In this document: positions 1-34,444 of the stretch, in pieces
How the letters are laid out: the number at the start of each line of letters is the position of its first letter
How positions within the stretch are numbered: position 1 is the stretch's first letter
Assembly (NCBI GenBank): GCA_030390025.1
Contig: CM059431.1
Coordinates: 133,426,001-133,490,000, forward strand
DNA length: 64,000 nucleotides
Direction of reading: 5' to 3'
From: Squalus acanthias
Taxonomy: Eukaryota
Made by a program: the position numbers and the translations under genes
The notes under the pieces: model-generated
Databases searched by the model: none
Told to the model about the DNA's origin: nothing
What the model saw: only the letters and a program-made list of their open reading frames with translations

Positions 1-1
1 A

Positions 2-1084
2 ACCATTAATCTGGGTCTGCAGCTCCACACTGTCTAGAGCGTTGACCACAGATGTACCTGTGTTAAAAGCAGTGAACGCGTCGTTCACTACACCCCTTCT
101 TTGCCTCCCTACTTGATCCAAAACTTCCTGTGGTGCGGTGTACAAACTTGTTTTATCAATTTCCGCGAAATCGAATTCGTAAAATTGTCTGAACATCTTG
201 GTCAACAGGACCTGATACAACTGTTCCGTCTTTTTGGGGCACCACTCTGGTAACCGCACCTCGGTGAGATTTAAAATCACCGAGGCCACCGCGTAATGTA
301 CCCCCTGGAATAGTATCTGGTCTGTGGGGACCAGTACCAAACCATTCCCGGGTCCCTTACTAGTTTTAGGGCACCCTTCCTCTTCAGCTAGAACCACCGG
401 AATCGTGGGCGGGGCTTTGCGTGGGCGCGTAATGAGTTCAGTGGCATTTACCGGGATCGAAGAGTATGGGGCTCCGCACCCCCTGGTGCTCGCATCCCAC
501 CTCATCCCCTGTCCGTTATCCTGCCATTGATTAATGAAAAATATGGAGATGCCTTTGGGGCAAGCGTACTTTGACCCCCACATGCATACATAAATTCCCT
601 CATCCGGTTCCCACCATTTGTCCCAACAGACTCTCACTTGTCCGTTTGTCCCCGTAATTGTCCGATGGGTATTATTACCCAGTCGTTCCCACTCGACCGA
701 AGAGTTCCTCATAGTTTTGCTCAGCTTTCGCAGCCACCACCATCGGCTCAATGGGACATTCCCATTACAAGTCAAACAAATCCGTTTGCCGACGGTGACG
801 CTGATCCTGGGTGCGATGATCCTTACTTTGGGGCACATTAAAGAAGTCTCTTGGTAGGCAAACCCCGATGTGCTGGAATACTCCGTTGAGTTCGTTCCCA
901 GCCATCCTGGCCACCTTCCCTTGTGGAAATAGGTGGTGGTCTCCTCAGCCTCCCGTCTTCCGGTCCCATCCACCGCGATGGGGGCCGTGTCCCCGGAGCA
1001 TCCAAACACCACGACATCCTTGGTGCGGCCTCGATAGGCCAATCCACATCCGATTGCCGCGAGCAATACTAGAATTCGTTCCAT
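2..1084 (-). CDS. env: Envelope glycoprotein, N-terminal 361 aa (runs off window edge)
   Basis: Manual translation, no stop from ATG 1084 to position 2. Signal peptide MERILVLLAAIGCGLA; N-glycosylation sequons (NST, NSS, NNT, NAT, NLT); Ig-like motifs; furin site RQRR (95-106) followed by GVVNDAFTAFNTGTSVVNALDSVELQTQING. Candidate splice acceptor ...ctatctgatcacAG at 1098-1099 just upstream of the ATG. Confidence 0.88.
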   Translation of the reverse strand, partial: MERILVLLAAIGCGLAYRGRTKDVVVFGCSGDTAPIAVDGTGRREAEETTTYFHKGRWPGWLGTNSTEYSSTSGFAYQETSLMCPKVRIIAPRISVTVGKRICLTCNGNVPLSRWWWLRKLSKTMRNSSVEWERLGNNTHRTITGTNGQVRVCWDKWWEPDEGIYVCMWGSKYACPKGISIFFINQWQDNGQGMRWDASTRGCGAPYSSIPVNATELITRPRKAPPTIPVVLAEEEGCPKTSKGPGNGLVLVPTDQILFQGVHYAVASVILNLTEVRLPEWCPKKTEQLYQVLLTKMFRQFYEFDFAEIDKTSLYTAPQEVLDQVGRQRRGVVNDAFTAFNTGTSVVNALDSVELQTQING

Positions 1085-1380
1085 CCTTCCTTGGTTCCTG
1101 TGATCAGATAGAATGAGGTAGCCAGCCTCGCAAGAGTCTCTGGCTTTTGTGAAGGGTGAGCGGGTCCCCTGACCTCGCCTCACGTAAACTTCAACGTTCG
1201 CTGAATAAACTTTAACTAGACCTATCTCTAAAGCTCCCATCATTTTATCATTTTCTGTTAAAATTAAACTACAAACTTAACCTTATTTAAAACTATAAAC
1301 TTATAACCTTAAACTATAAACTTAGAAACCTATCCTAAACTTATTACTGTACAGCGCCGCCCGTACTCAGGGCGGCCCCT

Positions 1381-4300
1381 TTAAATTCTGAGAAGGCTGC
1401 TGCGAGCTCTTCCCGACGGTGGGAGGGCACTGACCCTTTCCTTTGATCTGCCGCAGCCTGTTGCTGTTGCGATGGGACCGGATCCTATCTGGGCTGCCTT
1501 AACCTTAAGTCTGCGCCTTGGGGCAGTCTGGGGACATGACCACATCTTCCTGGGCTGGGGTGCCCGACCTGACCTACGAGGAGTTGTCGGGGGCATGAAC
1601 CCCAGGACCGACGGACCGGGTTCCGAGACTTCCACCGGGACGACCTGTGGTTCCACCACAGTCGCTGGCTCCGCCTCCGCTGACTCCGCCTCCCTAACCT
1701 CGGGACTTGCAGCTTGTGGCTCCGCCCTGCTCGGCCCAGCAGGCGGCCCTTCACTCGCGATCCCTGCCTCCCCCGAGGGCGGGACGTTCAAAGCGGGCGG
1801 CTCGGGCTCGGAGGTTCTCACCGTCACTCCCTGTGGTCTCACAGCGGCTGGCTCCGCCTCCCCTAGCTCCTCCCTCCTGTGTTCGGGACCTGCAGCCTCT
1901 GTGTCCACCCTGTGCGGATCTCCATCTGCAGCCCGTGTCCTCCCTATACCTAAAATGGGGGCGACCCTTTCGTTCCCCAAATCCCCCTCGTCTTCATCAC
2001 TATCCTCATCTGACTCGAGTTCCCGGAATTCTCCCTCATCTGACTCCCAACCCCACAAAAATGCTTCATGACTTTCCAGGATGTCTCCTCCCCTGATGCA
2101 AGCTGCTTTGCCTGCCTGTGTGCCTTGTGGTCCTACCTGGGGCTGCGAGTCCCCACTCGCAGGTTTTTCCCCTGTGGTTTTCCCTTGTGCACCTGGCTTG
2201 TACAGTTTGCACTGGTTTACGTGGAACCACTTAGTGCGCCGAGGTACCTTTACGGCGTATACCATGGGACTCGCCTTATCTACAATGTTGTAGGGTCCCA
2301 TATACAGTGGTTCCAGACTCCCTACTCTGGCGTAGTTTCTGACCATGACCTGGTCTCCTACTTCCCACTCCCGCGTTTTGCGGGGTTCCAGCAACAGGCG
2401 ATTGCCCTGATGCTGCCTTCCCATGTTCCCAGCCGCCTGCTCATACACCTGCTTCAGGCGCTCCAAGAGGGTCTGGGCGAACTTGTCCCTGCTTATCTCT
2501 TGGAGCTGGACCTCAGTGAGCACCGGCGCTAGCACATGGGTGGGGGTTCGCATGAGCCTCCCAGTCATCACCTCGTGCGGGGAATACCCCGTACTTTTCG
2601 ACTGACTGGCCCGGACCCCCATGAGGACTAAAGGCAGAACTTCCGCCCATTTTTGGGGCGAGTTCCTAGTCTCTTTCCTCAATTTCTCCTTCAGGGTCCG
2701 GTTCATGCGTTCAACAATCCCGGATGACTGGGGATTGTGTGCTACGTGCCACTTCCCTTCAATGCCCAAAAGCATGAGGGTGTTCTGCATCACCTGGCCG
2801 GTGAAATGGCTCCCTTGGTCTGACTCCACAAAACGGGGAAGTCCCCACCGCGAGAACACTTCCCTGACCAAGATTTTTGCAGTACCCAGTGCCGTAGCTG
2901 TTCGACAGGGGAAGGCTTCCACCCACTTGGAAAACACATCCACCAAGACGAGGCAGTATTTATAGCCTCCCTGGGTGGTGGGCAGGGGCCCTATATAGTC
3001 GATCTGTATCGACTGCCATGGTCCCTCTACCCTTCTTACGTGCCCCATGGGCACTTTCCTTTTCTGGGGGTCTGGGTTGTTTGCAGCACACACGAGACAG
3101 TTTGCACAGAACTCGCGGACCTGTTCCCTGAGCCCTGGCCACCATCCCGCTTGCTCTACCCGTTGCCAGGTAACCTCGGGCCCGGGGTGCCCTGCCCCTG
3201 GTCCCTCGTGAGCCAACTGGAGGAATTCCCTCCTGTGCTGCTGCGGCACAACCCACTGCTCCTCGCGGAACAGCATGCCTTCCTTAACTGAGAGGGTTGC
3301 CGTACTGTACGGACCCTCTACCTGCTTCCCCTCAGCAATGGTTTTTAGGACTGCTTTTAGGGCGGGATCCTGGTTCTGGACGGTCTTAAGGTCTAGGGGC
3401 AATGCTACCCTGGAGTTCCCGGGATTCCCGTCCCTGCCTTGGATCGCTGCCATGGGTCTGGTCCTATAGGGGTCCCAGAAAATGCCGTTGCGGGCACCTT
3501 CCCTGGCTAGCGCATCCGCCTGCTGGTTGCCCTCCCCACGGGGCTCTGTGGAGGAGTGAGCTTTCACCTTATGGATGAAAATCTCTCCTTCCTCCCCTAC
3601 TGCTGCTAGGATCTTTTCCAGCAAGGGCTTCACCGTTAAAGGTCGCCCGTCCGCGGAGGTGTATCCACGGCGGGACCAAATGGCCAGGTATTCCGTACAC
3701 GAATTGCAGGTGAACATACTGTCCGAGCAAATCGTGTATGGGGTTGGGAAAATGTCTGGGTGGGTAACAACGTACACCACGGCAGACAGCTCAGCCTGCT
3801 GCGCGCTCATGGTGCTAGGGAGCTTGATCGCCAGGGCAAGGTTTGCCGCAGGGTCATAAACTCCACACCCTGTGAGTCGTTCGCCAGCAGATACTGTGCT
3901 AGACCCATCAACATAAATCTCGCGCCCAGTGGGATGTATCCCGGCCCGCAAACCTATGTTGACGTCCCACACCCCTTCCACCGAACATCGGTGGGCTGTA
4001 CCGGGGTATACCAAATTGGCCGCAAGCCTGGGCTCGCAAAGACCTTTAACTCTAAGATCCATCTGGGAAAGAAGAAGGGTCCAGCGCGCAATACGCACGC
4101 TGCTTACGGTCCCATCTTTAATCCTCCCATCTAGAAGCATCTTAGTTGGCGTGTGATGGGTGAGGAGAGTGATGGGAGAGAGCCCTGTGAAGATCGCTGA
4201 TCTTTTCACAGCCCAATGCGTGGCTAAAAGGTGCCTTTCGCAATTGGAGAAACTTCTCTCCACATCCGTTAACACCCTGGATGAATAGACAACCGGCCTC

Positions 4301-5868
4301 AGCTTGCCGTGACGCTCTTGGAGCAGCACAGCGCTCAAGCTGTCTCCGCTGGCAGCTACCTCCAGGAAAAACTCCTTCCCCCCATCTATGGCCCCTAAGG
4401 CTGGCGCGGTCTGCAGATCCCTTTTTAACTTCTCGAAGGCTGCTTGGCAGCCCTCGTCCCAAGACCACTCCACTCCCTTATGGAGGAGTCGGAGGAGCGG
4501 CGCCGCTGTGGCCGCATAGTCTTCGATAAAATCCCTGCAGTAACCGGTCAGTCCCAAGAAGGACCTCACACCCCTTATGTTGTTGGGAATCGGTAACTCT
4601 TGCACCGACTCCCTCCTAGCTTTGTCTATGGCTCTTTCCCCAGCGCGAATGGTCAGTCCCAGGAATTTTACTTCCTGCTGACCGATACGTGCTTTCTTAG
4701 GATTTATTTTAAAACCCTTTCTCGCTAGCAGCTCCAATAACTCGTCCAGCAGTGGTCCATGCTCCTCCCTTGAATCCGTAAATAGGAGCAAATCATCCAC
4801 GTACTGCACTATCTGATTGGGCTGACTAAACTCCTTTAAACTTCCTGCCATACACTGATGGAAAATACTGGGGCTATTGTGGAAACCCTGTGGCAGACAG
4901 TTCCATGTGTACTGTTGTCCTTTGAAAGTAAAGGCAAACTTGTACTGGTCCTCTCGCCTCAGCGGGATGGACCAAAAACCGTTCGAGATATCCAACACCG
5001 TGAACGTGGTCGCGGACGCTGGGATACTCCCTATTAGGTCAGCAACTGCTGCTACCGTGGGCGCGCAGGCGGGAATGTTACTGTTAAGGACTCTGTAGTC
5101 CACCGTGGCTCTCCACGAATTATCCGGCTTCCTAACCGGCCATAATGGGGAGTTCACGTGTGTGGCTATCGGCCTCAACACGCCCTGCTGCACCAAGGAG
5201 GACATTGCTGTCTCCATATCGGGTTCTGCTTCTTTGGGGAAGTTATACTGTTTTTGGGGCCGGGTCATGGGGTCCCCATCTACGCTGACCTCAAACCCGG
5301 TAACCCTCCCACAATCGTGCTTGTGGGTTGCAAACGCGTGCATATTATCTGACACGTACGTTTGCATGTCCGTTGGGACACCTGCGACCATAAGCCCGAG
5401 GTCGTAGCCTCCGGATGGCTGCACGGTACACAGGACCCCTGTTTCTTCCTCCCCCGGAATCACTACTACCTCGCCTTTTTCACTCTTAGCCCCCCAGAGA
5501 CAGTGATTTCTGAGGTCCACGAGGATCCCGTGCCCTGATAGGAGATCGGACCCGAGGATACCTCTTCCACCCCCCTCCTGCCATTCCATCAGTATGCACT
5601 TCCACTTGAGGTGAAGTGCTCCCAAACGAATGGATAGCGGAAGGGAGAACGCGCCAGCCTGTTCTTTTCCCGTGAACCCCGCTAATGTGAATGGGACCTT
5701 GGTAGATAGCGGCGAGTCAAAAGGGCTATCTGTATGGATTATGGTGCAAGAAGCTCCCGTGTCCAACAAATAACTACCCTTCTGTTTCTCTACCTCCATC
5801 TCCACCAAAGGTCGCTTCCACGCATCATAGCTGAGCGGACACAGGTAGACGGGCTGCGCGGGCTCTAG
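1381..5868 (-). CDS. pol: Pol polyprotein: protease, RT, tether, RNase H, integrase, low-complexity tail
   Basis: LLDTGAS protease; LPQGFHNSP and YVDD RT; degenerate RNase H-like FFLEVAASG...SNCERHLLA; intact RNase H IYVDGSS/SAQQAEL/SDS/HKVKAH/GNQQAD; integrase H-H-C-C, QIDYIG, SDQGSHF, GIVERMN, GPY. Frame is open right up to the gag stop (ORF track starts at 5808). Confidence 0.96.
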   Translation of the reverse strand, partial: LEPAQPVYLCPLSYDAWKRPLVEMEVEKQKGSYLLDTGASCTIIHTDSPFDSPLSTKVPFTLAGFTGKEQAGAFSLPLSIRLGALHLKWKCILMEWQEGGGRGILGSDLLSGHGILVDLRNHCLWGAKSEKGEVVVIPGEEETGVLCTVQPSGGYDLGLMVAGVPTDMQTYVSDNMHAFATHKHDCGRVTGFEVSVDGDPMTRPQKQYNFPKEAEPDMETAMSSLVQQGVLRPIATHVNSPLWPVRKPDNSWRATVDYRVLNSNIPACAPTVAAVADLIGSIPASATTFTVLDISNGFWSIPLRREDQYKFAFTFKGQQYTWNCLPQGFHNSPSIFHQCMAGSLKEFSQPNQIVQYVDDLLLFTDSREEHGPLLDELLELLARKGFKINPKKARIGQQEVKFLGLTIRAGERAIDKARRESVQELPIPNNIRGVRSFLGLTGYCRDFIEDYAATAAPLLRLLHKGVEWSWDEGCQAAFEKLKRDLQTAPALGAIDGGKEFFLEVAASGDSLSAVLLQERHGKLRPVVYSSRVLTDVERSFSNCERHLLATHWAVKRSAIFTGLSPITLLTHHTPTKMLLDGRIKDGTVSSVRIARWTLLLSQMDLRVKGLCEPRLAANLVYPGTAHRCSVEGVWDVNIGLRAGIHPTGREIYVDGSSTVSAGERLTGCGVYDPAANLALAIKLPSTMSAQQAELSAVVYVVTHPDIFPTPYTICSDSMFTCNSCTEYLAIWSRRGYTSADGRPLTVKPLLEKILAAVGEEGEIFIHKVKAHSSTEPRGEGNQQADALAREGARNGIFWDPYRTRPMAAIQGRDGNPGNSRVALPLDLKTVQNQDPALKAVLKTIAEGKQVEGPYSTATLSVKEGMLFREEQWVVPQQHRREFLQLAHEGPGAGHPGPEVTWQRVEQAGWWPGLREQVREFCANCLVCAANNPDPQKRKVPMGHVRRVEGPWQSIQIDYIGPLPTTQGGYKYCLVLVDVFSKWVEAFPCRTATALGTAKILVREVFSRWGLPRFVESDQGSHFTGQVMQNTLMLLGIEGKWHVAHNPQSSGIVERMNRTLKEKLRKETRNSPQKWAEVLPLVLMGVRASQSKSTGYSPHEVMTGRLMRTPTHVLAPVLTEVQLQEISRDKFAQTLLERLKQVYEQAAGNMGRQHQGNRLLLEPRKTREWEVGDQVMVRNYARVGSLEPLYMGPYNIVDKASPMVYAVKVPRRTKWFHVNQCKLYKPGAQGKTTGEKPASGDSQPQVGPQGTQAGKAACIRGGDILESHEAFLWGWESDEGEFRELESDEDSDEDEGDLGNERVAPILGIGRTRAADGDPHRVDTEAAGPEHRREELGEAEPAAVRPQGVTVRTSEPEPPALNVPPSGEAGIASEGPPAGPSRAEPQAASPEVREAESAEAEPATVVEPQVVPVEVSEPGPSVLGFMPPTTPRRSGRAPQPRKMWSCPQTAPRRRLKVKAAQIGSGPIATATGCGRSKERVSALPPSGRARSSLLRI

Positions 5869-7677
5869 TCATTGGGTACTATTAGACGGTCCTGCGGCAC
5901 CTACGGGGCCGGTAGCAACCGCCACCTTTCCATGTGCACTCAATAATTTGCGCATGGCTCCCAACACTACTTCGAGGTCGTCGGGAGGGGTGGGTGCACT
6001 AGCTTCCCTAGCAGGGACAGGCGTCTGGGCTCGGGCTGCGGGAATTTTATCCCTGGAATCCTTCCAAGGGTTCCTGCAGTTCTTGCGCCAGTGCCCTGTC
6101 TTCCCACACCCGTAACAAGCATTACTTGCCTGCGGGGCGCGATTACCCTCCTGATGCCACTCCCTTTGATACGGGGCTGCGGGTCGTACCTCATGTACTT
6201 TTCCCTTAAGGGGACGTGTTCCCATACCCCTTATATTGCGATATCCTAACGTGAGTCGATTCAAGACCGACTCTTCCGTAATGTTGGGGTCATTGGGATC
6301 AAACCATGCTTTTGCCTGCTCTCTGACGGCTGGTAAACTGTTGGCTACTATGCACCTAAGCCAATGATTTAAACCGGCGCCGTCCATATCGTCGCGCTCT
6401 AGCGCACCTAGACAGCTGCGCTGATATACTGGCCACAGCCTGTCGGCAAAAACCTTCGGGGGTTCTCCCTCCATCTGCACTGTCTGTCCCACTCTAGCAA
6501 ACGGACCTTCATCGTCCGCCCCCAACACTTCCAGGACCTCATTCTTTAATGCCTCATAAGTCTTGGTTCCCCTCTTGCTCTCGCCCGAGAGACACTGAAG
6601 GATTGAACTGCCTAACGAAAACAACAGCATTTTTGCTGTTTCCCCATCATCGCAGCCGTTAATGGCTGCGGTTTGCTCAACTTCTCTGAAATGTACGGAA
6701 GGGTCGTCTAACTCGGTCAGCTTCCGTACATGATTTATCATAACTCTCAGCTGGTGTGAGCTGTGAGGCAACACAAGCTGGCCGAGGAGATCCCCTGGTT
6801 CCTCCCCACCGTTTCTGTTTGGGCCCCTTTTTATACCCGTTACTGGATACAACGGTCCCTTTTCCACTTCTTTCTCAATGGGCTCTTTCGTTTCTTCCAC
6901 TACTTCCTCCCTTACCCAGGTTTCCGAATAGCTGGGTGGCGCGGAGGGCGCAGTGGCTAATACTTCCTCTGCTTTACTTGGTGGGGACTTCTGAAACTCC
7001 TCTTTTACTAGCGGCTGGTGTGCTGACGGACTGATAAGGCACACCATGCCGTGCGCTTTGTTCACGGCCTTTTTGAGGTGCTCTATCTCTTTTTGGCAGG
7101 CGCTATGATCGGCTCCCTGAAACTTATCCTCAAGGGCCAACTTATATGCCGCCCTAACCCCCGTTAAGCTCTCTTCCTGAGTTCTTATCTGGGCAGCTTG
7201 GCGGGCACATCGTTCCTTTAATCTGCCCTCATTTAACTTTGCCTCAGTGACCTGGCACTCGAGGTAATCTATCCTTGTTTTATGGTGACTGGAGATTTCC
7301 TGGCGTTCTTGGTGCAGCGCACTTAAATTCCTAATGAGCAATTCCCCTCCAGAGACCTTCTCATCCATTTCTCCCTCTAAATGACTGATTCGAGCTGTTA
7401 GCGCTGTAATGACCTGGTTTGAAATCTGGACCTGCCTTTTGTAACACATTAGCCAGACTGCTTTCTCGAGTGTCTTTTTATGTTCTTTACTATCTGTCCA
7501 CCTTTCGGCTGCCTCTAGTGGACTTTTATCCGCTAACAATTCACTTATCCATTTCTTAGTTAGATTAACCTTTCCGAACACATAATCTGCTATCTTTTCC
7601 TGCATAACATTTCGTACAGTCACACCAAAGTCTAACACACTACCCTCTCGCTGCCAGTGTCCTGCCGCGGTCGCCAT
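5869..7677 (-). CDS. gag: Gag polyprotein, 602 aa
   Basis: ATG in good context (gaaaATGG); N-terminal coiled-coil-like region; PSAP/PPSY late-domain-like motifs; single CCHC knuckle CYGCGKTGHWRKNC; directly upstream of pol. Confidence 0.93.
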   Translation of the reverse strand: MATAAGHWQREGSVLDFGVTVRNVMQEKIADYVFGKVNLTKKWISELLADKSPLEAAERWTDSKEHKKTLEKAVWLMCYKRQVQISNQVITALTARISHLEGEMDEKVSGGELLIRNLSALHQERQEISSHHKTRIDYLECQVTEAKLNEGRLKERCARQAAQIRTQEESLTGVRAAYKLALEDKFQGADHSACQKEIEHLKKAVNKAHGMVCLISPSAHQPLVKEEFQKSPPSKAEEVLATAPSAPPSYSETWVREEVVEETKEPIEKEVEKGPLYPVTGIKRGPNRNGGEEPGDLLGQLVLPHSSHQLRVMINHVRKLTELDDPSVHFREVEQTAAINGCDDGETAKMLLFSLGSSILQCLSGESKRGTKTYEALKNEVLEVLGADDEGPFARVGQTVQMEGEPPKVFADRLWPVYQRSCLGALERDDMDGAGLNHWLRCIVANSLPAVREQAKAWFDPNDPNITEESVLNRLTLGYRNIRGMGTRPLKGKVHEVRPAAPYQREWHQEGNRAPQASNACYGCGKTGHWRKNCRNPWKDSRDKIPAARAQTPVPAREASAPTPPDDLEVVLGAMRKLLSAHGKVAVATGPVGAAGPSNSTQ

Positions 7678-7772
7678 TTTCTGTAAGGGTTTGCGTGCGT
7701 GTCTCTCAGCCTGTGAGATTCGCGTGGCTCTGTGCAGCCTGTATGTCAGTGCGGGTTTAGGCCTTGTTGCCT

Positions 7773-7811
7773 GTTCTGGTCTCCAGCCAGTCTGGGAACA
7801 CTAGACACACC
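7773..7811 (-). promoter_or_regulatory. Putative primer-binding region (imperfect, tRNA-Leu(CAA)-like)
   Basis: After the LTR end (...CACTCACA) the sense strand reads GGTGTgtctAGTG versus the Leu PBS TGGTGTCAGAAGTG. Plus-strand GTTCTGGTCTCC (7773-7784) matches the anticodon-stem/variable arm of vertebrate tRNA-Leu(CAA) as recalled from memory. Confidence 0.5.
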
Positions 7812-9364
7812 TGTGAGTGGTTCGAATCACTCGCCCTTACGGTTCTAGACACTGGACTTAGATGCGAGAGCAGTAATGGAGATGAAACTCATGTAGACTC
7901 GGTTGAATGGTACGAAATGGAAAATCTTTATTGCATAATATTCAAGATTACGAAATACATGTCATAAGCACAGATTAATGACAGTACAATCTTACACGCA
8001 GTTATGTAACTAATTCTAGGGAAACGAGGAACGAACGACACACCGTAAATGGGGGCACACATTACAATTATCCTTAGTACTTAAACCCTCCCCTATCAAT
8101 ATCTGTCCTAGCTAGATTCGTAGGATTCGAGACTCATGCTCACCACTCGTGATAACTCGGAGAAATTCCGAATAGCTGATCGGATGTTTTCACCGCAGCA
8201 CCCACGTGTCGATCAGGGGGTCTCCTGGCCCCACTTGTTTACTTGCTTCTGCTCCGGCTAGCAGGCTGGAACGTCTGTTGTTATGAAGATCTGTGTTTGT
8301 GGGTTTCACGTACCAGTCAACACTTAAGAGAATAATCTCTCGGTGTCGTCATGAGGATCTGCCCTGATGGGTTTCACAGACCAGTCAATACCTCAAAGAA
8401 GAATCTTCCGGGGTCCGTTCTTTAAAGTTCAAAGAAGTCTTCCTGGCAAGGAAAATTGTCTATTCGACCTACAGGCGCGGTCGGGGCTTACTGACCGTGG
8501 CGATAAGTATGGTCTTCGTCTCTTCTCATCTCATCTCATCTCTTCTCGGGCCTTTGGTTCCGATGCCGGTTACCAACACAGGTCTTCGTGACACGACACG
8601 AGGTAGATCCGAACGGATCACAAAGTTCAACAGTCTTTTAAAAGAGACACCAGGCAAACAGGAACAAGACGGCGAGTCAAGAACACAGGAGCAGCCACGA
8701 GGATGAACACCAGCAAGATAAGAGGATAAGAGAAAGATGGACGGTTTGGGGCTTGCAATTATAGTGCAAAATCTTCCGTTTCCCGCCCAACCTTAATGTC
8801 TTTTCTTTTGTTTGGGTTTGGCGCTCAAATGTCTTGTATAGGTGATCTCCGTTTTTAATGGGTTTCGGGGCTACTCGTAAATGTCTGAGTACCTGTTAAT
8901 ATTTCTCCCATTGTTTAATCGGTCGGTGTTCTCCCTGGAGGGGTTTTGGGGCCTCCAAGTGTTTTCTGTAACTACCCGCTAACGGCTCTCTCATCGTAGA
9001 GTCGTTGGGATTTTACATATTAATGTCTTTGGATGGGCCCTTGATTACTTGGTACAATAGCCTTTATTCGTACCCGGGAGACCGATTTCAGTATCTATGT
9101 GTATACTGCAAACCCATGATGTCTCGTGTATTATCTTCAATGTGCTGAATCCCAATCGGTCTTGTACAAATGTTTATTGGAACGCCATCCTGTCTGCCTG
9201 TCGAAAAGTCCAGAATGTTCCGCCACGAGGTGCGGCGGCCATTTTACAAGCTGCCTGTGTCCACTTTGAAACCTGACAGCATTCTGCTGAAATAAAAGCT
9301 GTTTGAACGAAACTATGTGTTTTCTCCTTATTTAATAAAATCGCGATATATTGCGAATTCTACA
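7812..9364 (-). repeat. 5' LTR (~1.55 kb); inner boundary inferred
   Basis: TG at 9364 and CA at 7812; TATAA-like box near 8758-8763; AATAAA at 7927-7932 (sense); terminal hairpin then ACA. The 3' LTR is not in the window, so the inner end is unconfirmed (alternatives 7863 or 7892). Confidence 0.7.
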
Positions 9365-9807
9365 GACTTCAGTTACGTGGATAGACTGGAGAAGCTGGGG
9401 TTGTTCTCCTCAGAGCAGTGAAGGTTGGGAGGAGATTTGATAGAGGTGTTCAAAATCATGAGGGATCTAGACAGAGTAGATAGAGAGAAACTGTTCCCAT
9501 TGGCGGAAGGGTTGAGAATCAGAGGACACAGATTTAAGCAGAAGAACCAAAGGTGACATGAGGAAAAGCATTTTTATGCAGCAAGTGGTTATGATCTGGA
9601 ATACACTGCCTGAAAGGGTGGTGGAGACAGATTCAATCATGGTTTTCAAAAGGGAATTGGATAAGTACCTGAAGAATAAAATTTGCAGGGTTACGGGGAA
9701 AGGGCGGGGGAGTGAGACTAGCTGAAGTGCTCTTGCAGACAGCCTGCACGGGTTCGACAGGCTGAATGGCCTCCTTCTGTGCTGTAACCATTCTATTCTA
9801 TGATTCT
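9365..9807 (+). mobile_element. CR1 LINE 3' fragment (insertion site of the provirus)
   Basis: RT C-terminal sequence similar to other CR1 ORF2 ends in the window; ATTCTATTCTATGATTCT tail. Confidence 0.85.
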
Positions 9808-10149
9808 CACCCCAGCCATGATGGCAGCAATCTGAGCTTGCGTCGCAACAAGCTGCACTTGCATGACAGATGTCTGAGCTTCCACTGCATATGCTGCAAT
9901 GGAATTCTCAATTGGAGTTAAGGATATGCAGGCTTGCCTGTCCCCCTCCAGTTAGCTGCTTCTGCTTATGCTGCAATGAGCAGCCTGGGAGGCCAGCCAG
10001 GAGAGCATTGGAATAGTCAAGTCGAGAGGTCATTGAAGGGAACGTGTGGGTTTTCATTACACAAGGAAAGTTATTGAACAATAGGATTTTTCCACAACTG
10101 TAAGTATTTTGTGATCATAGAGTTTCACTCAAATCTCCTGGCCAGTGCA

Positions 10150-10692: not shown

Positions 10693-11532
10693 GGCCCGGA
10701 TATTCCAATCCCTACGGGTGGGTACGCGCTGTGTACTCACCCGTAGGGACATCGGAAATGCCGGTTTCAGGCATGCACAGCGCATGCGCTGGAAACCGGC
10801 ATTTCCGATCTGTCAAGAAAGCGCTTGACAGAACAAACGCACGCGCAGGAAAGGCAGTGCTACCGGCTCAAAGTTCCGATTTTTTCTCAAATGCTTCAGT
10901 CCAGGTACGTCCGAAACAGCTGCGCCTAGTAAAAGCAGGCGTACAGCCTGCATTCTACCGGAAGAAGCTGCAGGAAGAAGAACACTTTCAGCAGTGGGCT
11001 TGGAAACGGAACATTTTTAATTGTGAAGGTGAGCAAAGTTCTTTGTAGAAAACCTGAGGTAAGTTTTTATCAACTTTAATTTGTTTAAAAACTTTATTGG
11101 TTTTGTATCTTGTTTTGAGTTGTGTAGTTATAAAGAGCAACTCTTGCTGTGTGCAAGGTAATCATTCTATTGAATTAGATTTCATTTTCTTAAATGTGAA
11201 AATAACTGTTTAAAAATGAATTATTTAACACTTACTAAAGTTTTAAAAAATTATGCCAGAAAATATCAATTAGTTATATGTTAACTTTTCCATGCCCTTT
11301 AAAAATTGTATGTATAACTTTGTGAAAATGTTAAAGTACTTAGAAAATCATCTCGGGCGTGATATTGATCAGGCGGGTATGACGTGTGCCCGATCCGATA
11401 CCGCACGTTTCACACTATAGCCCCACGTGATTTTCTAGCCACTCACTTTATTAAAATTATTTTTACAACTCTTTCCATTTTTTCCTTACAAGTACTTCAT
11501 CTGTTTAAAGAGGAAGCCTGTGAGGGAGAAAC

Positions 11533-12650
11533 ATGCCCTTTGACGATGTTGCCCTGATCCTCGGTGCGATTGTGCTTCAGAGAATTGGAAACGCCAGGGA
11601 ACAACAAAGAAGACTGAGGAACCATCACCGTCTCCTGATCAGGAGGAACTACTACCCACCCCAGAGAGTGTACAGGGAGAGGCTGTCATTTGAGATGCTG
11701 TCGGAGGAGTTGTGTGTGAGGAGGTTATGCTTCAGTAAAGAGGCAATCGGCCGACTATGTGACATGCTAAAGGAGGACCTTCAAACACGATTGACGACCC
11801 GCACTGCCTTGTCAGTGAACATGAAAGTAACCACAGCATTGAACTTCTTTGCAAGTGGTCCAACATCTCCCAGAGTGCTGCGTTGGTCTGCATTCACCAG
11901 GTCACAGATGCCATTTTCTGTGGGGCTTCAGAGTTCATAGACTTTGAGTTGTCCACTCGCCATCAAAAGGAGATGGCCCTTGCATTTTATAGCATTGCTG
12001 GATTCCCCAGAGTGATTGGGGCCGTCGATGGAACCCATGTTACATTGAAGGCACCACTGGATGCACCTGTGACATACATCAACAGGAAGGTGTTTCATTC
12101 ATTGAATGTCATGATAGTCTGTGATGCGCACCTCAGGATCCTAAGCGTGAATGCAGATCACCGGGGAAGTGCTCATGACTCCTTCGTCCTCTGTAACTCG
12201 GACTTATATGGCACCCTCAGCACATTGCCTCCAGGATCCGCATGGATATTGGGTGACAAGGGCTACCCACTAAGACCATGGCTGATGACTCCCTACCGCA
12301 AGACCAATAATGAGGCTCAGGAGAGATACAACTAGGCACACGTGTCCACACGGCAAGTGGTGGAGATGACAATCGGGGTTCTGAAATCACGCTTCCGGTG
12401 CCTGGACAGGTCAGGGGGGACCTTGCAGTATTCTCCTCTGAAAGTGGCAATAATTGTGGCCTGTTGTGCTTTGCATAACTTTGCCCTGCAGGAAGGACTG
12501 ACCCTTAACCCTGCAGAGGAGCTCCCTGCTGAAATGGAGGACATGGACGATGCCAATGTGCCTGTGGCCAGGCCTGATGGGGAGGAGCCAAGTGCTGCCA
12601 AATGTAAGGCTGCTCGGGAACTGCTAGTAGCCAACACCTTCACGAGGTGA
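11533..12650 (+). pseudogene. Harbinger (HARBI1-like) DDE transposase, disrupted
   Basis: Three ORF pieces with [35 protein letters not shown]; one frameshift and one in-frame stop. Confidence 0.9.
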
Positions 12651-15175: not shown

Positions 15176-15645
15176 GGGGGAAAAATTGGGTATCGCCCAT
15201 TTTGGGGCGCTGATATCGGCCTGGCGCTAATTATCGCCGCCGACCGCGAAATTCATCTCCAGCGCCCCTGAAGGTGATTAGAGCATTAATCAAGCGCTAC
15301 ACATCTCTCTTAGGGTGTTAACATTGGGGATCGAGGCTGAAGCTCAGGTGATGTCAATTACCTGGTACTCAGACAGACTGGCACCATCCAGTTCTTAAAA
15401 GGAAGGGTCCATCTTGTTGCACAGCCACACCCTGCTCATTGCAGCGTTTGACATCGGCCTGCAAGCAGTTAAACATCTTCATCCAAGATTTATGATGGAT
15501 ACTCAGAGGCCCAGGGAGAGAGCTCGGCAGTTTAGTGACCAGGCATTGGTGGCTCTGGTTGGCGCTGTGGAACGGCGATGGGCAGTGCTGTTTCCAGAGA
15601 CTGGCCTGAGACCATTGCCCCAGGAGTTTACAAGGGTCTGGAGGG
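15176..15645 (+). mobile_element. Harbinger left arm with start of Myb-like gene, split by a CR1 insertion (continues at 25151)
   Basis: TIR GGGGGAAAAATT; RERARQFSDQALVALVGAVERRWAVLFP...VWRE resumes as AQHISSRSLVQRTHTQCRKKFNDL at 25151. Confidence 0.85.
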
Positions 15646-17662
15646 AGCCCAGGAGAGCGAGAGTTCGGAGCTACTAAAACAGCGGGAGCCCAGGTGAGCG
15701 AGAGTTCGGAGCAACTAAAACAGCAGGAGTTCAGGAGAGCGAGAGTTCGGAGCTACTAAAACAGCGGGAGTTCAGGAGAGCGAGAGTTCGGAGCTACTAA
15801 AACAGCGGGAGCCCAGGTGAGCGAGAGTTCGGAGTGACTAAAACAGCGGGAGCCCAGGAGAGCGAGAGTTCGGAGCGACTAAAACAGCGGGAGCCCAGGA
15901 GAGCGAGAGTTCGGAGTGACTAAAACAGCGGGAGCCCGGGAGAGAGCGAGAGTTCGGAGCAACTAAAACAGCGGGAGTTCAGGAGAGCGAGAGTTCGGAG
16001 CAACTAAAACAGCGGGAGTTCAGGAGAGCGAGAGTTCGGAGCAACTAAAACAGCGGGAGCCCAGGTGAGCGAGAGTTCGGAGCGACTAAAACAGCGGGAG
16101 CCCAGGTGAGCGAGAGTTCGGAGCGACTAAAACAGCGGGAGCCCAGGAGAGCGAGAGTTCGGAGCAACTAAAACAGCGGGAGCCCAGGAGAGCGAGAGTT
16201 CGGAGCTACTAAAACAGCGGGAGTTCAGGAGAGCGAGAGTTCGGAACAACTAAAACAGCGGGAGTTCAGGAGAGCGAGAGTTCGGAGCAACTAAAACAGC
16301 GGGAGTTCAGGAGAGCGAGAGTTCGGAGCAACTAAAACAGCGGGAGTTCAGGAGAGCGAGAGTTCGGAGCAACTAAAACAGCGGGAGTTCAGGAGAGCGA
16401 GAGTTCGGAGCAACTAAAACAGCGGGAGTTCAGGAGAGCGAGAGTTCGGAGTGACTAAAACAGCGGGAGTTCAGGAGAGCGAGAGTTCGGAGCAACTAAA
16501 ACAGCGGGAGTTCAGGAGAGCGAGAGTTCGGAGTGACTAAAACAGCGGGAGTTCAGGAGAGCGAGAGTTCGGAGCTACTAAAACAGCGGGAGTTCAGGAG
16601 AGCGAGAGTTCGGAGTGACTAAAACAGCGGGAGTTCAGGAGAGCGAGAGTTCGGAGCTACTAAAACAGCGGGAGCCCAGGAGAGCGAGAGTTCGGAGCAA
16701 CTAAAACAGCGGGAGCCCAGGAGAGCGAGAGTTCGGAGCAACTAAAACAGCGGGAGCCCAGGTGAGCGAGAGTTCGGAGTGACTAAAACAGCGGGAGCCC
16801 AGGTGAGCGAGAGTTCGGAGCGACTAAAACAGCGGGAGCCCAGGAGAGCGAGAGTTCGGAGCAACTAAAACAGCGGGAGCCCAGGAGAGCGAGAGTTCGG
16901 AGCTACTAAAACAGCGGGAGTTCAGGAGAGCGAGAGTTCGGAACAACTAAAACAGCGGGAGCCCAGGAGAGAGCGAGAGTTCGGAGCTACTAAAACAGCG
17001 GGAGCCCAGGAGAGAGCGAGAGTTCGGAGCTACTAAAACAGCGGGAGCCCAGGAGAGCGAGAGTTCGGAGCTACTAAAACAGCGGGAGCCCAGGAGAGAG
17101 CGAGAGTTCGGAGCTACTAAAACAGCAGGGAGCCCAGGAGAGCGAGAGTTCGGAGCAACTAAAACAGCGGGAGCCCAGGTGAGCGAGAGTTCGGAGCTAC
17201 TAAAACAGCGGGAGCCCAGGAGAGCGAGAGTTCGGAGCTACTAAAACAGTGGGAGCCCAGGTGAGCGCGAGTTCGGAGCTACTAAAACAGCGGGAGCCCG
17301 GGAGAGAGCGAGAGTTCGGAGCAACTAAAACAGCGGGAGTTCAGGAGAGAGTGAGAGTTCGGAGCAACTAAAACAGCGGGAGTTCAGGAGAGAGCGAGAG
17401 TTCGGAGCAACTAAAACAGCGGGAGCCCAGGTGAGCGAGAGTTCGGAGCAACTAAAACAGCGGGAGCCCAGGAGAGAGCGAGAGTTCGGAGCAACTAAAA
17501 CAGCGGGAGTTCAGGTGAGCGAGAGTTCGGAGCTACTAAAACAGCGGGAGCCCAGGAGAGAGCGAGAGTTCGGAGCTACTAAAACAGCGGGAGTTCAGGA
17601 GAGCGAGAGTTCGGAGCAACTAAAACAGCGGAGTTCAGGAGAGCGAGAGTTCAGGAGAGCGG
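15643..17662 (+). repeat. 41-bp tandem array (~49 copies) forming the CR1-A 5' end
   Basis: Unit GAGCGAGAGTTCGGAGCTACTAAAACAGCGGGAGCCCAGGA with recurring variants; no unique spacers. Confidence 0.95.
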
Positions 17663-25413: not shown

Positions 25414-25585
25414 GAACCTTCCCGCCGATCCTCATATCCCTTGATTCTCTTAGAGTCCAAAAATCTATCGATCTCAACCTTGGATATATTCAACGACTGA
25501 GCATCCACTCTGGAGTTGAGAATTCTGAAGATTCACAATCCTCTAAGTGAAGAAATTCCTCCTCATCTCAGTCCTAAATGGCTGA
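25414..25585 (-). mobile_element. CR1 3' fragment, host of CR1-C (continues 31293-31660)
   Basis: Reverse-complement RT C-terminal sequence that resumes after 31292. Confidence 0.7.
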
Positions 25586-25591
25586 CGCTTA

Positions 25592-26207
25592 AGCGTCGGC
25601 GGGAGTTTCAGCGGCGGCAGTGGGCCTATAAAAGGCTCCAGAGACCAGGTAAGGCCTCAGAGTGTCGGCGGGTCTTTCAGCGGCGGCAGTGGGCCTGTAA
25701 AAGGCTCCAGAGACCAGGTAAGGCCTCAGAGCGTCGGCGGGAGTTTCAGCGGCGGCAGTGGGCCTGTAAAAGGCTCCAGAGACCAGGTAAGGCCTCAGAG
25801 TGTCGGCGGGAGTTTCAGCGGCGGCAGTGGGCCTGTAAAAGGCTCCAGAGACCAGGTAAGGCCTCAGAGCGTCGGCGGGAGTTTCAGCGGCGGCAGTGGG
25901 CCTGTAAAAGGCTCCAGAGACCAGGTAAGGCCTCAGAGCGTCGGCGGGAGTTTCAGCAGCGGCAGTGGGCCTGTAAAAGGCTCCAGAGACCAGGTAAGGC
26001 CTCAGAGCGTCGGCGGGAGTTTCAGCGACGGCAGTGGGCCTATAAAAGGCTCCAGAGACCAGGTAAGGCCTCAGAGCGTCGGCGGGAGTTTCAGCGGCGG
26101 CAGTGGGCCTGTAAAAGGCTCCAGAGACCAGGTAAGGCCTCAGAGCGTCGGCGGGAGTTTCAGCGGCGGCAGTGGGCCTGTAAAAGGCTCCAGAGACCAG
26201 GTAAGGC
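25592..26207 (+). repeat. 69-bp tandem array (9 copies) at the CR1-C 5' end
   Basis: Unit AGCGTCGGCGGGAGTTTCAGCGGCGGCAGTGGGCCTRTAAAAGGCTCCAGAGACCAGGTAAGGCCTCAG. Confidence 0.95.
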
Positions 26208-26431
26208 GAACCAGTCTCCGAACTCAGAGGGAAAAATAATCGAAGTGTGACGTCACCAAAAAGCAGGTAAGTGATTGGTTGGTGAGAATTTCTCTCTAAG
26301 CTTAAATTCTGTGGTGTTAAATTTCTAGGGTCTCTGTGGTGTAGTGGGGACAGTTGGTAAATAAAGCGTCCTAGAGTATATCTGTAACTGGGGTATTGAA
26401 TACATTTTTAATTTAATTAAAGGAGTAGGTC

Positions 26432-27382
26432 ATGACAGGTGATATCAGCCCCGTGTTATGCTCCTCTTGCTCCATGTGGGAATTCAGGGACGCTGCCAGT
26501 GTCCCTGGGGACCACGTGTGCGAGAAATGCATCCAGCTGCAGCTACTTGTAGACCGCATTGCGGCACTCGAGCTGCGGGTGGATGAGTTTTGGAGCATAC
26601 GCGATGCTGAGAGGGTCGTGGATAGCACGTTTAATGAGTTGGTCACGCCGCAGGGTAGGGCTGCACAGGCAGAAGGGAAATGGGTGACCATCAGGCGGAG
26701 CAGCAGAGGCAGGCAGGGAGTACAGGGGACCCCTGCGGTCATCCCCATTTCAAACAGGTATACCGATTTGGATACTGTTGAGGGGGATGACTCACCAGGG
26801 GAGAGTGGCAGCAGCCAACTTCCTGGCACCAGGGTTGCTTCTGCTGCTCAGAAAGGGAGGAAAAAGAGTGGGAGAGCAATAGTGGTAGGGGATTCTATCG
26901 TAAGGGGAACAGATAGGCGTTTCTGTGGCCGCAAAAGTGACTCCAGGATGGTTTGTTTCCTCCCTGGGGCCAGGGTCATGGATGTCACTGAGCGGCTACA
27001 GGGCATTCTTAAGGGGGAGGGTGAGCAGGCAGAGGTCGTGGTTCACATTGGGACCAACGACATAGGTAGGAAGGGGGATGAGGTCCTGCATCAAGAATTT
27101 AGGGAGCTAGGCAGCAGATTAAAGAGCAGGACCTCAAAGGTTGTAATCTCTGGATTACTCCCAGTGCCACGTGCTAGTGAGTATAGGAATAGGAGGATAG
27201 AACAGATGAATGCGTGGCTAAAGAGTTGGTGCAGGAGGGAGGGTTTTAGTTTCCTGGATCACTGGGCCTGCTTCTGGGGAAGGTGGGACTTGTACAAGTC
27301 GGACGGTTTGCACCTGAACCAGAGCGGGACAAATATCCTTGCGGGGAGGTTTGCTAGCACTGTTGGGGGGGGTTTAAACTAA
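26432..27382 (+). CDS. CR1 ORF1 protein (zinc motif, leucine zipper, GDSL/SGNH esterase)
   Basis: CSSCSMWE...HVCEKC; heptad leucines; VVGDSIVRG, PGA, HIGTNDIG, DGLHLN. Confidence 0.93.
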   Translation: MTGDISPVLCSSCSMWEFRDAASVPGDHVCEKCIQLQLLVDRIAALELRVDEFWSIRDAERVVDSTFNELVTPQGRAAQAEGKWVTIRRSSRGRQGVQGTPAVIPISNRYTDLDTVEGDDSPGESGSSQLPGTRVASAAQKGRKKSGRAIVVGDSIVRGTDRRFCGRKSDSRMVCFLPGARVMDVTERLQGILKGEGEQAEVVVHIGTNDIGRKGDEVLHQEFRELGSRLKSRTSKVVISGLLPVPRASEYRNRRIEQMNAWLKSWCRREGFSFLDHWACFWGRWDLYKSDGLHLNQSGTNILAGRFASTVGGGLN

Positions 27383-32704: not shown

Positions 32705-34444
32705 GGGCTGCATTTTCCCAGTGGAGGCGGGTTCACAGCGGGAGAGCTAGTTGGCGGGTTCCAGTCCCACTCCCGGCTCCAGCTGCTCTCTGTAAACAAT
32801 TTTGCGCTGATTGGGCTTGTTAAGCCCGCCGTGCACGTTACCCGGCCCAATTACAGGGTGCAGGTCTGTTGAGGTCCTCTGATGATGCGTTTGTTGCTGG
32901 ACTACTTAAGGGGGCCATGTCCCCATTTGCTCTCCATTCTGATTTGATACTCCTGAGTGCTGCTTCTTTGAGAAATGACTGCAGAGAGACCATTTTGAGC
33001 AACCCTATTGTTTGCTCTATGACACTTCTGGTGGAAATGTGGCTTTGATTGTAACGCTCCTCAGATTTGTTTGATGGCCTCCTCAATGGTGTCATTAGCC
33101 ATGTCTTCAGGGGATAGCCCTTGTCTCCAAGGAGCCAGCCGGAAAGTTCATTTGGCGGAGTGAAGAGCTGAGGGACAGTGGAGCGGCGCAGGCTGTAAGA
33201 GTCATGGCAGCTGCCAGGGAACTTGGCGCACACATGCATGATGCTCTTCCTATGGTTGCAGACCAGCTGCACGTTAAGGGAGTGGAAGCCCTTGCGGTTG
33301 ACTGCTGGGTTGTGATGGGGTGCCCTGATGGCCACATGTGTGCAGTCGATGACGCCCTGCACCCATGGGAAGCCAGCCAGATTGACAAAGCCGAACACCA
33401 GCTCCGTAACACTGGCTTCATCAGTGGAAAAGCGGATGTAATTGGTGGACTTGTCAAAGAGGCCATCGGTAACCTGCCTGATGCATCTGTGGGCGGCCGA
33501 CTGGGAGATGCCGCTAATGTCTGCTGCAGATCCCTGGAAGGACCCCGACGCAAAGAAGTTGAGTGCAGTGGTGACTTTGACAGCCAGTGGTAACTGGTGT
33601 CCACCTGCTCCTTTGGGCTGCAGGTCTTGATCGAGCATTGTGCAAAAGTCTGCGACTACCTCTCGCAAAAGTCTCAGCCTCCTTTGGCACTGCTGCTCAG
33701 CCATGTGGAAGCTCACCCTCTGCCTGTAAACCCTGTGTTGGGGGTATCTCCTGCAGCATGGTGCAGCCCTGCACTGATGGCCTCTTCCCTACGCAGCATC
33801 AGGTGGTTGAGGAGAAGGTTGCTGCTCTTGTTGTTGGTGCTGCTGGTGTGCCTGGTTCTGCTGCTGTTGCGGCTGATCCTCTTCAGATTCTGAGGACCAG
33901 GGTGAGAGAGTATAAATGGTTCCCATTCTGCTGTTATATATGGCAGTTGAGGATGAGATGTTAGAAGCCGCCAGTCAATGGGGAGAAAGGTTATTTCAAG
34001 GTGGTGACAGTGCATATAGAGTTTACACCACACACTTACAACCTCAATACAGATCAAATGTGTCTTCCAAATCCTGAAATCAGCAACTTCTGACATTTGA
34101 AAGTGAACAGATGTGAGAGGTTAGCTTTTATACTGCAGTTGCAGCTGTGAACTATTCAGCTCGCTGGAACGGCTGACATATTTACCTGATGTGATCTCCG
34201 AATGACGTGAAACCCGTTGAAAATGTGGGAAAATAGAAAAAGGCTGGCAAAATAGTAGTTAACAAGCAGTTAACTATCTTCAATGCCTCCCATGCTGCTT
34301 GGTGTCGAGTCTGTTCTGAAAAGCGCAGACCCGACACTTTGGGAACTTACATGGAGGCGGGTTCGCAGCGGGTTCCCAACCCGCCATCAATCATTTCAAA
34401 TTTAACAGCTGACCCACCTCCGAACCCACCCTCTGAGCGCGGCC
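32705..34444 (-). mobile_element. Harbinger deletion derivative with truncated transposase (32838-33716)
   Basis: [33 protein letters not shown]; left TIR GGGCTGCATTTT, right TIR eroded. Confidence 0.82.

Follow-up and report, generated by a model that had tools for sequence, protein, structure and literature searches.

Which retroviral lineage is represented by an element that fills the first 9,364 nucleotides of a 64,000-nt stretch of the Squalus acanthias genome (contig CM059431.1 of assembly GCA_030390025.1, positions 133,426,001 to 133,490,000; hereafter "the window")? An initial annotation of this DNA had described an apparently intact, env-bearing provirus with two ribonuclease H (RNase H) domains and had called it lokiretrovirus-like. 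We find that the element is an endogenous retrovirus (ERV) with an unusual mix of parts. Our overall reading, which we regard as probable, is that the window holds the 5' part of an ERV with open gag, pol and visible env genes, that this ERV belongs to a deep retroviral lineage likely distinct from the lokiretroviruses, and that its envelope protein (Env) is predicted to combine an F-type fusion core with an immunoglobulin-like (Ig-like) head. All coordinates below refer to the window; the element lies on the minus strand, and the 3' part of env, the 3' long terminal repeat (LTR) and the target-site duplication fall beyond the window edge.

Anatomy of the element

The features on which the following analysis draws are these:

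7682-9364, minus strand: likely 5' LTR of 1683 bp, TG...CA, with a 4-bp terminal inverted repeat; inner end inferred
7659-7676, minus strand: primer-binding site (PBS), an 18-mer 5 nt behind the LTR end
5872-7677, minus strand: gag, 602 amino acids from a PBS-overlapping ATG or 578 from the conserved Met25
5865-5871, minus strand: gag stop and likely readthrough site, TGA then CTA G, with pol in the same frame
1384-5868, minus strand: pol, 1495 codons, open
5536-5820, minus strand: protease with D36; Pfam RVP E 6.5e-4 and gag-asp_proteas 8e-4, both below the Pfam cut-off
4459-5250, minus strand: reverse transcriptase (RT) core and thumb, pol residues 207-470, Gln327 in motif B'; Pfam RVT_1 E 5e-36
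4018-4380, minus strand: tether, a Ty3/Gypsy-type RNase H with 4 of 4 catalytic acids replaced; Pfam RT_RNaseH/RT_RNaseH_2
3493-3921, minus strand: second, complete RNase H with D654, E693, D716 and D785 kept; Pfam RNase_H E 3e-20
2200-3249, minus strand: integrase with HHCC, DDE core and SH3-like end; Pfam H2C2 and rve, SH3-like match below the cut-off
1381-2181, minus strand: Pol tail of about 266 amino acids, acidic and Pro/Ala-rich, and pol stop
1098-1118, minus strand: likely env splice acceptor, judged from sequence only, ending 13 nt before the env ATG
2-1084, minus strand: env, first 361 codons from ATG 1084, open to the window edge, with a hydrophobic signal-peptide-like start
524-826, minus strand: predicted Ig-like head, about residues 87-187, with Cys106, Trp115-117 and Cys167
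2-373, minus strand: predicted F2/F1-like core with Cys-bounded strands and helix, furin-type site R327-R330 (106-95), fusion-peptide-like stretch and start of a heptad helix
9365-9800, plus strand: host flank, the 3' part of an interrupted CR1-type long interspersed nuclear element (LINE) that was the insertion target of the provirus

The anatomy given by the initial annotation is right because the frames are open, the Pfam domains are found, the tether is dead and the catalytic residues are kept. Disabling mutations are absent, as claimed, from gag, pol and the visible env, since the minus-strand frames 7677-5872, 5868-1384 and 1084 to the edge are free of stops; the word "intact" therefore holds for the visible part only, that is, for gag, pol and the first 361 env codons. 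Pfam matches and residue alignment agree on the Ty3/Gypsy-like RNase H remnant followed by a second complete RNase H: where 7 of 7 gypsy RNases H carry their four invariant acids, the tether has A505, H546, H571 and A617 of pol, and its mean identity to these 7 proteins is 29%. The catalytic RT residues D293/D358/D359 are kept, as are integrase H887/H894/C924/C927 and D957/D1017/E1053. What had been overlooked is that the boundary between gag and pol consists of a single in-frame stop.

Gag is laid out with an N-terminal coiled coil and one CCHC knuckle (Pfam zinc knuckle), and it carries a PPxY-type motif that we take to be a late motif. A PDB profile search with Gag matched nothing beyond the knuckle and thus no capsid domain, and an exact-sequence look-up of the window Gag in a protein collection found no entry. 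No tail comparable to that of Pol was seen in 10 aligned Pol relatives, some of which are truncated models. This tail (1381-2181) contains a duplication and ends in a basic stretch; in 3 of 4 runs internal depth is lowest in its bin 1736-2082, and a joint at 1466-1430 recurs in 3 runs.

Phylogenetic placement

The nearest relatives of Pol are "NYNRIN-like" proteins of frogs and the coelacanth (44-45% identity over RT-RNase H). They represent undescribed ERVs. The suggestion of a poorly sampled lineage holds. By RT, the nearest reference virus is snakehead retrovirus (SnRV), which we recognised in record L035 by an RT equal to the SnRV row in the supplement of PMC7947760 and by its length of 10,688 nt, as in PMC12193657. 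The window RT is 51-53% identical to the frog and coelacanth ERVs, 43% to SnRV, 34-39% to epsilon/gamma-like and 31-36% to foamy-like sequences, and 35% to the best gypsy element.

Three sets of trees were built. The RT-only tree (48 rows, 264 columns) included gypsy and caulimovirus rows and, in this tree alone, the N-terminal RT of the partial protein P0008; the RT-tether-RNase H tree (24 rows, 617 columns) was made without gypsy and is unrooted; and RT+tether trees were rooted with a gypsy outgroup under LG+G4, under a mixture model, and with a second, non-overlapping set of ten gypsy rows. Near-identical frog paralogues, most of the 60-odd caulimovirus-like rows and most gypsy rows were left out, and the gapped P0009 was left out of the RT-only tree and of the LG+G4 and mixture-model rooted trees. 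The RT-only tree separates the retrovirus side from the gypsy and caulimovirus rows at 100/100, with unsupported deeper forks, and puts the window outside a 100/100 clade of 8 foamy-like records (fish foamy-like ERVs being unsampled) as well as outside a 100/98 clade of walleye dermal sarcoma virus (WDSV), two epsilon records, Xen-1 and a gamma-like ERV. The RT-tether-RNase H tree groups the window at 95/98 with P0004 and the other proteins of frogs and the coelacanth (P0002-P0007 and P0009 in all); these relatives differ from the window in the absence of the long acidic Pol tail, and all that was seen of a possible Env gene is an Ig-like stretch spliced onto P0002.

Two placements come into question. 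On the first, to which we give about an even chance, the element is an ordinary SnRV-related ("Huo", class III-like) member, and its basal position is a rooting artefact in which a distant outgroup joins slowly evolving rows. This placement draws on approximately unbiased (AU) tests, which speak against a basal position in that they leave the window group unrejected both with SnRV (p 0.19) and with SnRV, P0010 and L113 (p 0.14), and on a quick unrooted tree in which SnRV is sister to the window group (SH-aLRT 89). Both viruses share an in-frame gag-pol stop and hence a readthrough layout, a coiled-coil Gag with one CCHC knuckle (Gag profile against SnRV Gag, E 4e-4), Gln in RT motif B' and an alignable Env core; the SnRV PBS starts with the same six bases, and the same four bases follow the poly(A) hexamer. 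Both presumably also have an Arg primer. That the root falls inside the window group in the LG+G4 and mixture-model trees moreover points to unstable rooting. A prior in the same direction comes from Xu et al. 2018, who screened genomes including those of frogs, coelacanth and cartilaginous fishes and sorted 8,075 ERVs into five clades, with Huo the widest (PMC6001957). Against this placement, however, the window group joins SnRV in only 13 of 1000 RT-only and 0 of 1000 RT+tether bootstrap trees, so that their clade has no bootstrap support; the more careful RT-tether-RNase H tree leaves SnRV unplaced; and the integrase tree, though poorly resolved, does not join the two (36% integrase identity). 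SnRV further differs in its stop context (UAG-GGC vs UGA-CUA in the window), in an LTR of 518 bp vs 1.68 kb, in a PBS gap of 1 nt vs 5 nt and in an Env head that cannot be aligned (E 0.12). SnRV itself also has accessory ORFs downstream of env, a region that in the present element falls beyond the window edge.

On the second placement, a serious possibility that in our judgement falls short of probable, the element belongs to a separate lineage of sharks and skates, frogs and the coelacanth that arose after the lokiretroviruses and before the split of foamy viruses and orthoretroviruses. The rooted RT+tether trees speak for it, since they unite SnRV, foamy, epsilon/gamma, P0010/11 and L113 in a clade that leaves out the window group, with support of 97/99 (LG+G4), 99/98 (mixture model) and 88/93 (second outgroup). 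This clade is also found in 989 of 1000 RT+tether bootstrap trees, and the element itself joins a retroviral RT to a tether, an integrase style and an LTR layout that are lokiretrovirus-like. Weighing against it are the lower share in RT alone (637 of 1000 trees, or 64) with its unsupported fork, AU tests that leave the SnRV-related placement standing, an outgroup branch of 1.3-1.4 changes/site with no lokiretrovirus to break it, and rooted trees in which the window group forms no clade. A slowly decaying tether may be part of the basal signal.

Among the sampled records, L113 (162-5828) is a metagenome contig with a deep-branching retroviral pol beside an env that looks gamma-type by eye; the shark Env profile did not match it.

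Relation to lokiretroviruses and other groups

That the element is a true lokiretrovirus, and the first in a cartilaginous fish, was the view of the initial annotation and seems improbable to us. It has two RNase H domains, a long LTR, Pol relatives annotated as NYNRIN-like and an Env in which a signal peptide, a furin site, a fusion peptide and a coiled coil are predicted; its coiled-coil Gag recalls that of BHIKHARI (bioRxiv 2024.03.25.586437), and the niche was open insofar as Wang and Han 2020 reported lokiretroviruses in 0 of 6 chondrichthyan genomes (PMC7947760). Published lokiretroviruses and lokiorterviruses, including BHIKHARI, resemble the element in the pairing of tether and RNase H, in its predicted F-type layout of Env, in a Gag with a coiled coil, in integrase style and in a long LTR set off from the PBS by a gap (PMC7947760, PMC9040795). 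The tether plus RNase H, which had been taken for the retrovirus/lokiretrovirus arrangement, is indeed present but is not diagnostic, being common to all retroviruses and Odin, and "dual RNase H plus F-like env" is no diagnosis of a lokiretrovirus either.

The lokiretrovirus label is probably wrong, as judged by residues of RT, of the second RNase H and of integrase on which it fails. In the alignments of the PMC7947760 supplement, pol residue 327 (RT motif B') is Phe in 24 of 24 lokiretrovirus rows and Gln in the window as in the SnRV, foamy, gamma and epsilon rows; a Cys two places after the first RNase H acid is found in 17 of 17 lokiretrovirus rows seen, where the window has Ser656; and 22 of 24 lokiretrovirus integrases have a Cys where the window has Asp977. 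The window Env further differs in the absence of a PF00523 match and in its extra Ig-like head. The closest proteins to the window from bullfrog, Xenopus and coelacanth also differ plainly by eye from the lokiretroviruses of these hosts, Loki-Rca, Loki-Xtr and Loki-Lch. Scans of viral contigs, and of metagenomes among the best 80 of 532 matches, gave SnRV, WDSV, Xen-1, foamy-like, caulimovirus-like and gypsy records and no recognised lokiretrovirus.

Several observations nevertheless count against a lineage distinct from the lokiretroviruses. The tethers of the window group are 26-33% identical to gypsy RNase H, compared with 18-25% for SnRV, WDSV, L113 and P0010, which is a lokiretrovirus-like degree of preservation (the Loki-Str tether is given as 32% identical to Ty3; Wang and Han 2020, PMC7947760). 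The integrase style is near that of the lokiretrovirus rows, with 36% identity to SnRV, and the long LTR with a gap of several bases before the PBS resembles the Loki-Bsp sequence by eye (PMC7947760). The exclusion of lokiretroviruses rests on residues read by eye, and their use as markers is our own reading and not one named by the authors of the alignments. The phylogeny of RT and integrase that the initial annotation had proposed was run with Retroviridae and Ty3/Gypsy rows, so that ordinary Ty3/Gypsy could be excluded (100/100), but not with lokiretrovirus rows; also absent from the trees are Odin, ERV-L/S, alpha/beta/delta/lenti and fish foamy-like rows.

That we are dealing with a Ty3/Gypsy element that has gained an env, or else with a foamy, epsilon or gamma retrovirus, is very improbable and largely refuted, for although PDB searches with RT score the murine leukemia virus (MLV)-type RT (237 bits) and foamy RT (224) above Ty3 (147), and epsilon/gamma viruses likewise read through a gag stop, the window is excluded from the gypsy (100/100), foamy (100/100) and epsilon/gamma (98-100/96-99) clades. 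The dead tether is also unlike Ty3/Gypsy elements, which have a single active RNase H, and the CCHC knuckle and the pol in frame with gag are unlike foamy viruses, in which Gag lacks a CCHC and pol is in another frame.

A predicted F-like envelope core and Ig-like head

By sequence, the Env fragment in the window shows a signal-peptide-like start, a basic site (R-X-R-R), a fusion-peptide-like stretch and the start of a predicted coiled coil, and the transmembrane segment is seen in the relative P0126. Our searches found 18 Env relatives that carry two different heads on a shared core. In this core, a strand-helix segment bounded by cysteines is joined by a basic site for cleavage, a stretch like a fusion peptide and a helix with heptads. 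All 9 of the 9 proteins matching the Env core of the relative P0122 are from sharks of 4 genera/species (Mustelus, Chiloscyllium, Heterodontus and Pristiophorus).

By its sequence, the Env core is likely F-like. With hhalign, a profile of it can be matched to SnRV Env across 287 columns (E 7e-5, probability 62%), and both the cysteines and the cleavage site line up. The F-like Env of the initial annotation is thus probably right as far as weak profile and feature likeness goes, but direct matches to F proteins are missing from Pfam and PDB. The comparison of env profiles with F proteins that had been proposed gave no match of PF00523 to the window Env or to 5 shark relatives including a full-length one. 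It did give a weak likeness in Atlas for the full-length P0126, the features of which score 0.91-0.92, at low recognition, against clusters of fusion glycoproteins (PF00523), of baculovirus F and of gypsy Env; an Atlas search with the window Env gave no usable match. Besides the missing PF00523 match, further results argue against the predicted Env architecture: with HMMER the Env profile reached SnRV Env at E 0.61 among 630 peptides, a PDB search with shark Env gave no fusion-protein match, the model of the full-length P0126 Env has a predicted local distance difference test (pLDDT) score of 34, and the Ig-like head described below rests on a model of pLDDT 44 and on Z scores of at most 5.1. 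BLASTP of the window Env fragment against SnRV Env found no match.

The head is likely Ig-like according to several lines of evidence that are consistent and individually weak. In a PDB search with the head, 11 of 12 weak matches were Ig chains (E 0.3-1), and Pfam Ig_3 matched the Env relative P0111 (E 0.0085). The best Foldseek hit of the head model has E 0.014, the listed rows being antibody-type domains, and its alignment by VIA-align retrieved mostly Ig domains with Z up to 5.1 and a root-mean-square deviation of 3-4 over about 80-95 residues. Cys106, the Trp and Cys167 are kept in 4 of 4 relatives that span the head domain. The PDB search with alignment A7, which was also used for the head model, was dominated by zinc fingers of the chimeric model P0110, and P0116 was left out of the Pfam scan.

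By analogy, the head probably serves attachment and cell binding. Class Ib fusogens are described as carrying receptor-binding modules at the N terminus or between the subunits (PMC11468914), and receptor-binding domains (RBDs) of the IgV type are known on gamma-type Env (bioRxiv 2024.03.17.585361). The foamy Env (class Ib; Fernandez et al. 2024, PMC11468914) shares with the architecture proposed here an F-like core with an added receptor-binding module; in contrast, the foamy RBD is inserted between the subunits, the window module is N-terminal as in coronavirus spike, and the window RT lies outside the foamy clade. The IgV RBDs and the SIRP-derived RBD described by Hotzel (bioRxiv 2024.03.17.585361) are likewise N-terminal Ig folds and the likely attachment part; they sit on class Ia gamma-type Env, unlike the window module with its predicted F-type core.

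In five shark Env proteins (P0119, P0121, P0122, P0126 and P0128), a core like that of the window is joined to a different, shorter and Cys-rich head. The same core with different heads suggests head swapping among shark ERVs. In the Pyxicephalus model P0002, the integrase runs into a signal-peptide-like stretch and an Ig-like domain (about 1200-1291; Pfam Ig_3 E 0.012), so this frog Env, too, may begin with an Ig domain, unless the gene model was spliced onto a host exon. The start of SnRV Env (L035, 6131-6450) has a strand-Cys, Trp, Tyr-x-Cys pattern that looks Ig-like by eye, although its comparison with the window head is not significant (E 0.12).

The gag-pol junction

The junction UGA-CUA-G is likely a readthrough site that gives Gag-Pol, as judged from its sequence. 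The gag stop is conserved in both Gag relatives (2 of 2, at 46-54% identity). With one and the same last residue in all three aligned Gags, the stop cannot be a lesion peculiar to this copy. UGA-CUA is the type II readthrough context of Sindbis virus (PMC13517186), and Pol of SnRV is made by suppression of an in-frame gag stop (PMC13517186, PMC2717909). UGA-CUA is absent from the retroviral gag-pol contexts that we found listed in the 2026 readthrough review; SnRV is given there with UAG-GGC and three other aquatic-host retroviruses with UGA and other followers (PMC13517186). A point against readthrough is that the 132 nt downstream of the stop hold no stable stem-loop (z +1.56; 190 of 200 shuffles fold as well). 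Because no stable structure follows the stop, the case for readthrough is one of layout and context.

LTR, primer-binding site and insertion

The likely 1683-bp LTR and the putative PBS follow from a CA at 7682, after which come 5 nt and an 18-mer that resembles a tRNA 3' end. Contig depth agrees, since it steps up within bin 7635-7981 and remains high to 9369. The LTR has a TATA-like box at 8763-8759 and a poly(A) hexamer at 7932-7927. An alternative LTR end at 7892, with a 6-bp inverted repeat, was ruled out; no PBS comes after it, and LTR-level depth goes on to 7847.

Of the 34 viral loci holding the first 15 bases of the PBS 18-mer, ARAGORN calls a tRNA in 1, and this tRNA ends in the whole 18-mer; the other 33 loci are not tRNAs, and a text search of the literature for the 15-mer gave no match. 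The locus in question is L014 (60-138): its viral tRNA gene, for which a four-base anticodon was called, ends in 18 bases that match the PBS of the provirus. We take the PBS isotype to be tRNA-Arg(UCG), a vertebrate isotype. Hart et al. are said to have reported in 1996 that the primer of SnRV is tRNA-Arg. The first gag ATG overlaps the PBS (7677-7659), and the skate Gag model P0132 starts alike with two changed residues, which presumably fit another tRNA-Arg isodecoder. Met25 is invariant in 3 of 3 aligned Gags and may be the real start of gag.

On the host side, loose ends at 9365 continue as LINE sequence in 4 of 4 runs, so the boundary at 9364 is real. Repeat families D10, D14 and D15 match the LINE open reading frame (ORF) of 980 amino acids at 27358-30300. 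It is part of a LINE at 26429-30300 on the plus strand with a 317-amino-acid ORF1 and this open ORF2, which we take to be of the CR1 type by family name.

Copy number, age and relatives

Part of window 1-10000 is present in 20 of 23 listed runs, which come from 8 studies and carry five organism labels, with two rows unlabelled. In run X3, the summed depth over the internal region is about 94,000-354,000 vs 27 on the unique flank. This excess points to very many copies, although depth is no copy number. In run X10, which has another organism label, the pieces span 252-540 nt with 3 to 43 differences, and the unique flank is uncovered. The family is common to several organisms at about 97-99% identity; "young" in the initial annotation suits it insofar as it is fairly young and abundant. 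Of 38 sites listed for the element, with 937 further rows beyond the listing, 13 show a different letter in 90% or more of the X3 depth. The copy in the window thus departs from the family majority and seems to have aged somewhat and to have gained private substitutions.

The Gag search returned 2 matches, the named one from the skate Rhinoraja longicauda (P0132, 53%). With the shark Env proteins, this match by itself makes a cartilaginous fish the likely host. In run X12 (guessed to be RNA), LTR bins are about 50-100x deeper than internal bins, vs about 2-4x in DNA runs; this excess could reflect LTR pieces in host transcripts. Contig depth cannot rank expression.

Proposed replication cycle and wider meaning

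In the replication cycle that we propose, the long LTR would drive full-length RNA, and a host tRNA, presumably for Arg, would prime reverse transcription at 7676-7659. Translation of Gag would end at UGA, and occasional readthrough of UGA-CUA-G would give Gag-Pol, in which the dead Ty3/Gypsy RNase H would act as tether and the second RNase H, with its catalytic acids, as the enzyme (both domains being visible in the sequence). Env would be made from a spliced RNA via the acceptor at 1098, a furin cut after R330 would free the fusion peptide, and the head would supply attachment, a function that paramyxoviruses put in a separate protein. The family would have spread to very many copies before the window copy gained its private substitutions.

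The origin of retroviral Env is debated, and a taxon with retroviral-type RT, F-like Env, little-decayed tether and lokiretrovirus-style integrase is one able to decide the matter; its open genes make a structural test of Env easy. Our broadest proposal is a speculative one that we would not call probable: the element may stand for a third deep enveloped lineage between lokiretroviruses and classified Retroviridae, recently alive in sharks, skates, frogs and the coelacanth. The F-type (class Ib) fusogen would then be the ancestral retroviral Env, fitted with exchangeable heads, a captured Ig domain among them, and the orthoretroviral Env a later replacement. If the lineage reading is true, an ancestral F-type Env is suggested because foamy, SnRV, lokiretrovirus and window Env would all be F-type (for the F-like foamy Env, see Fernandez et al. 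2024, PMC11468914). This would run counter to the independent-origin scenario of Wang and Han 2022, who prefer separate Env gains in lokiretroviruses and canonical retroviruses (PMC9040795). The literature that we searched, which leaves most subscription journals uncovered, holds no description of a chondrichthyan ERV with an F-like, Ig-headed Env or of a lineage between lokiretroviruses and Retroviridae.

Other features of the window

Putative transposase ORFs, one of them open over 410 amino acids, lie at 60497-61729 on the minus strand and also at 11524-12650, 32838-33788 and 37618-38106, with Myb/SANT-like ORFs nearby. We take these to be Harbinger/PIF-like transposases with their Myb/SANT-like neighbours; an exact-sequence look-up of the Harbinger-like proteins in a protein collection found no entry. 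Tandem arrays with units of 41 bp and 69 bp occupy 15530-17200 and 25523-26281.

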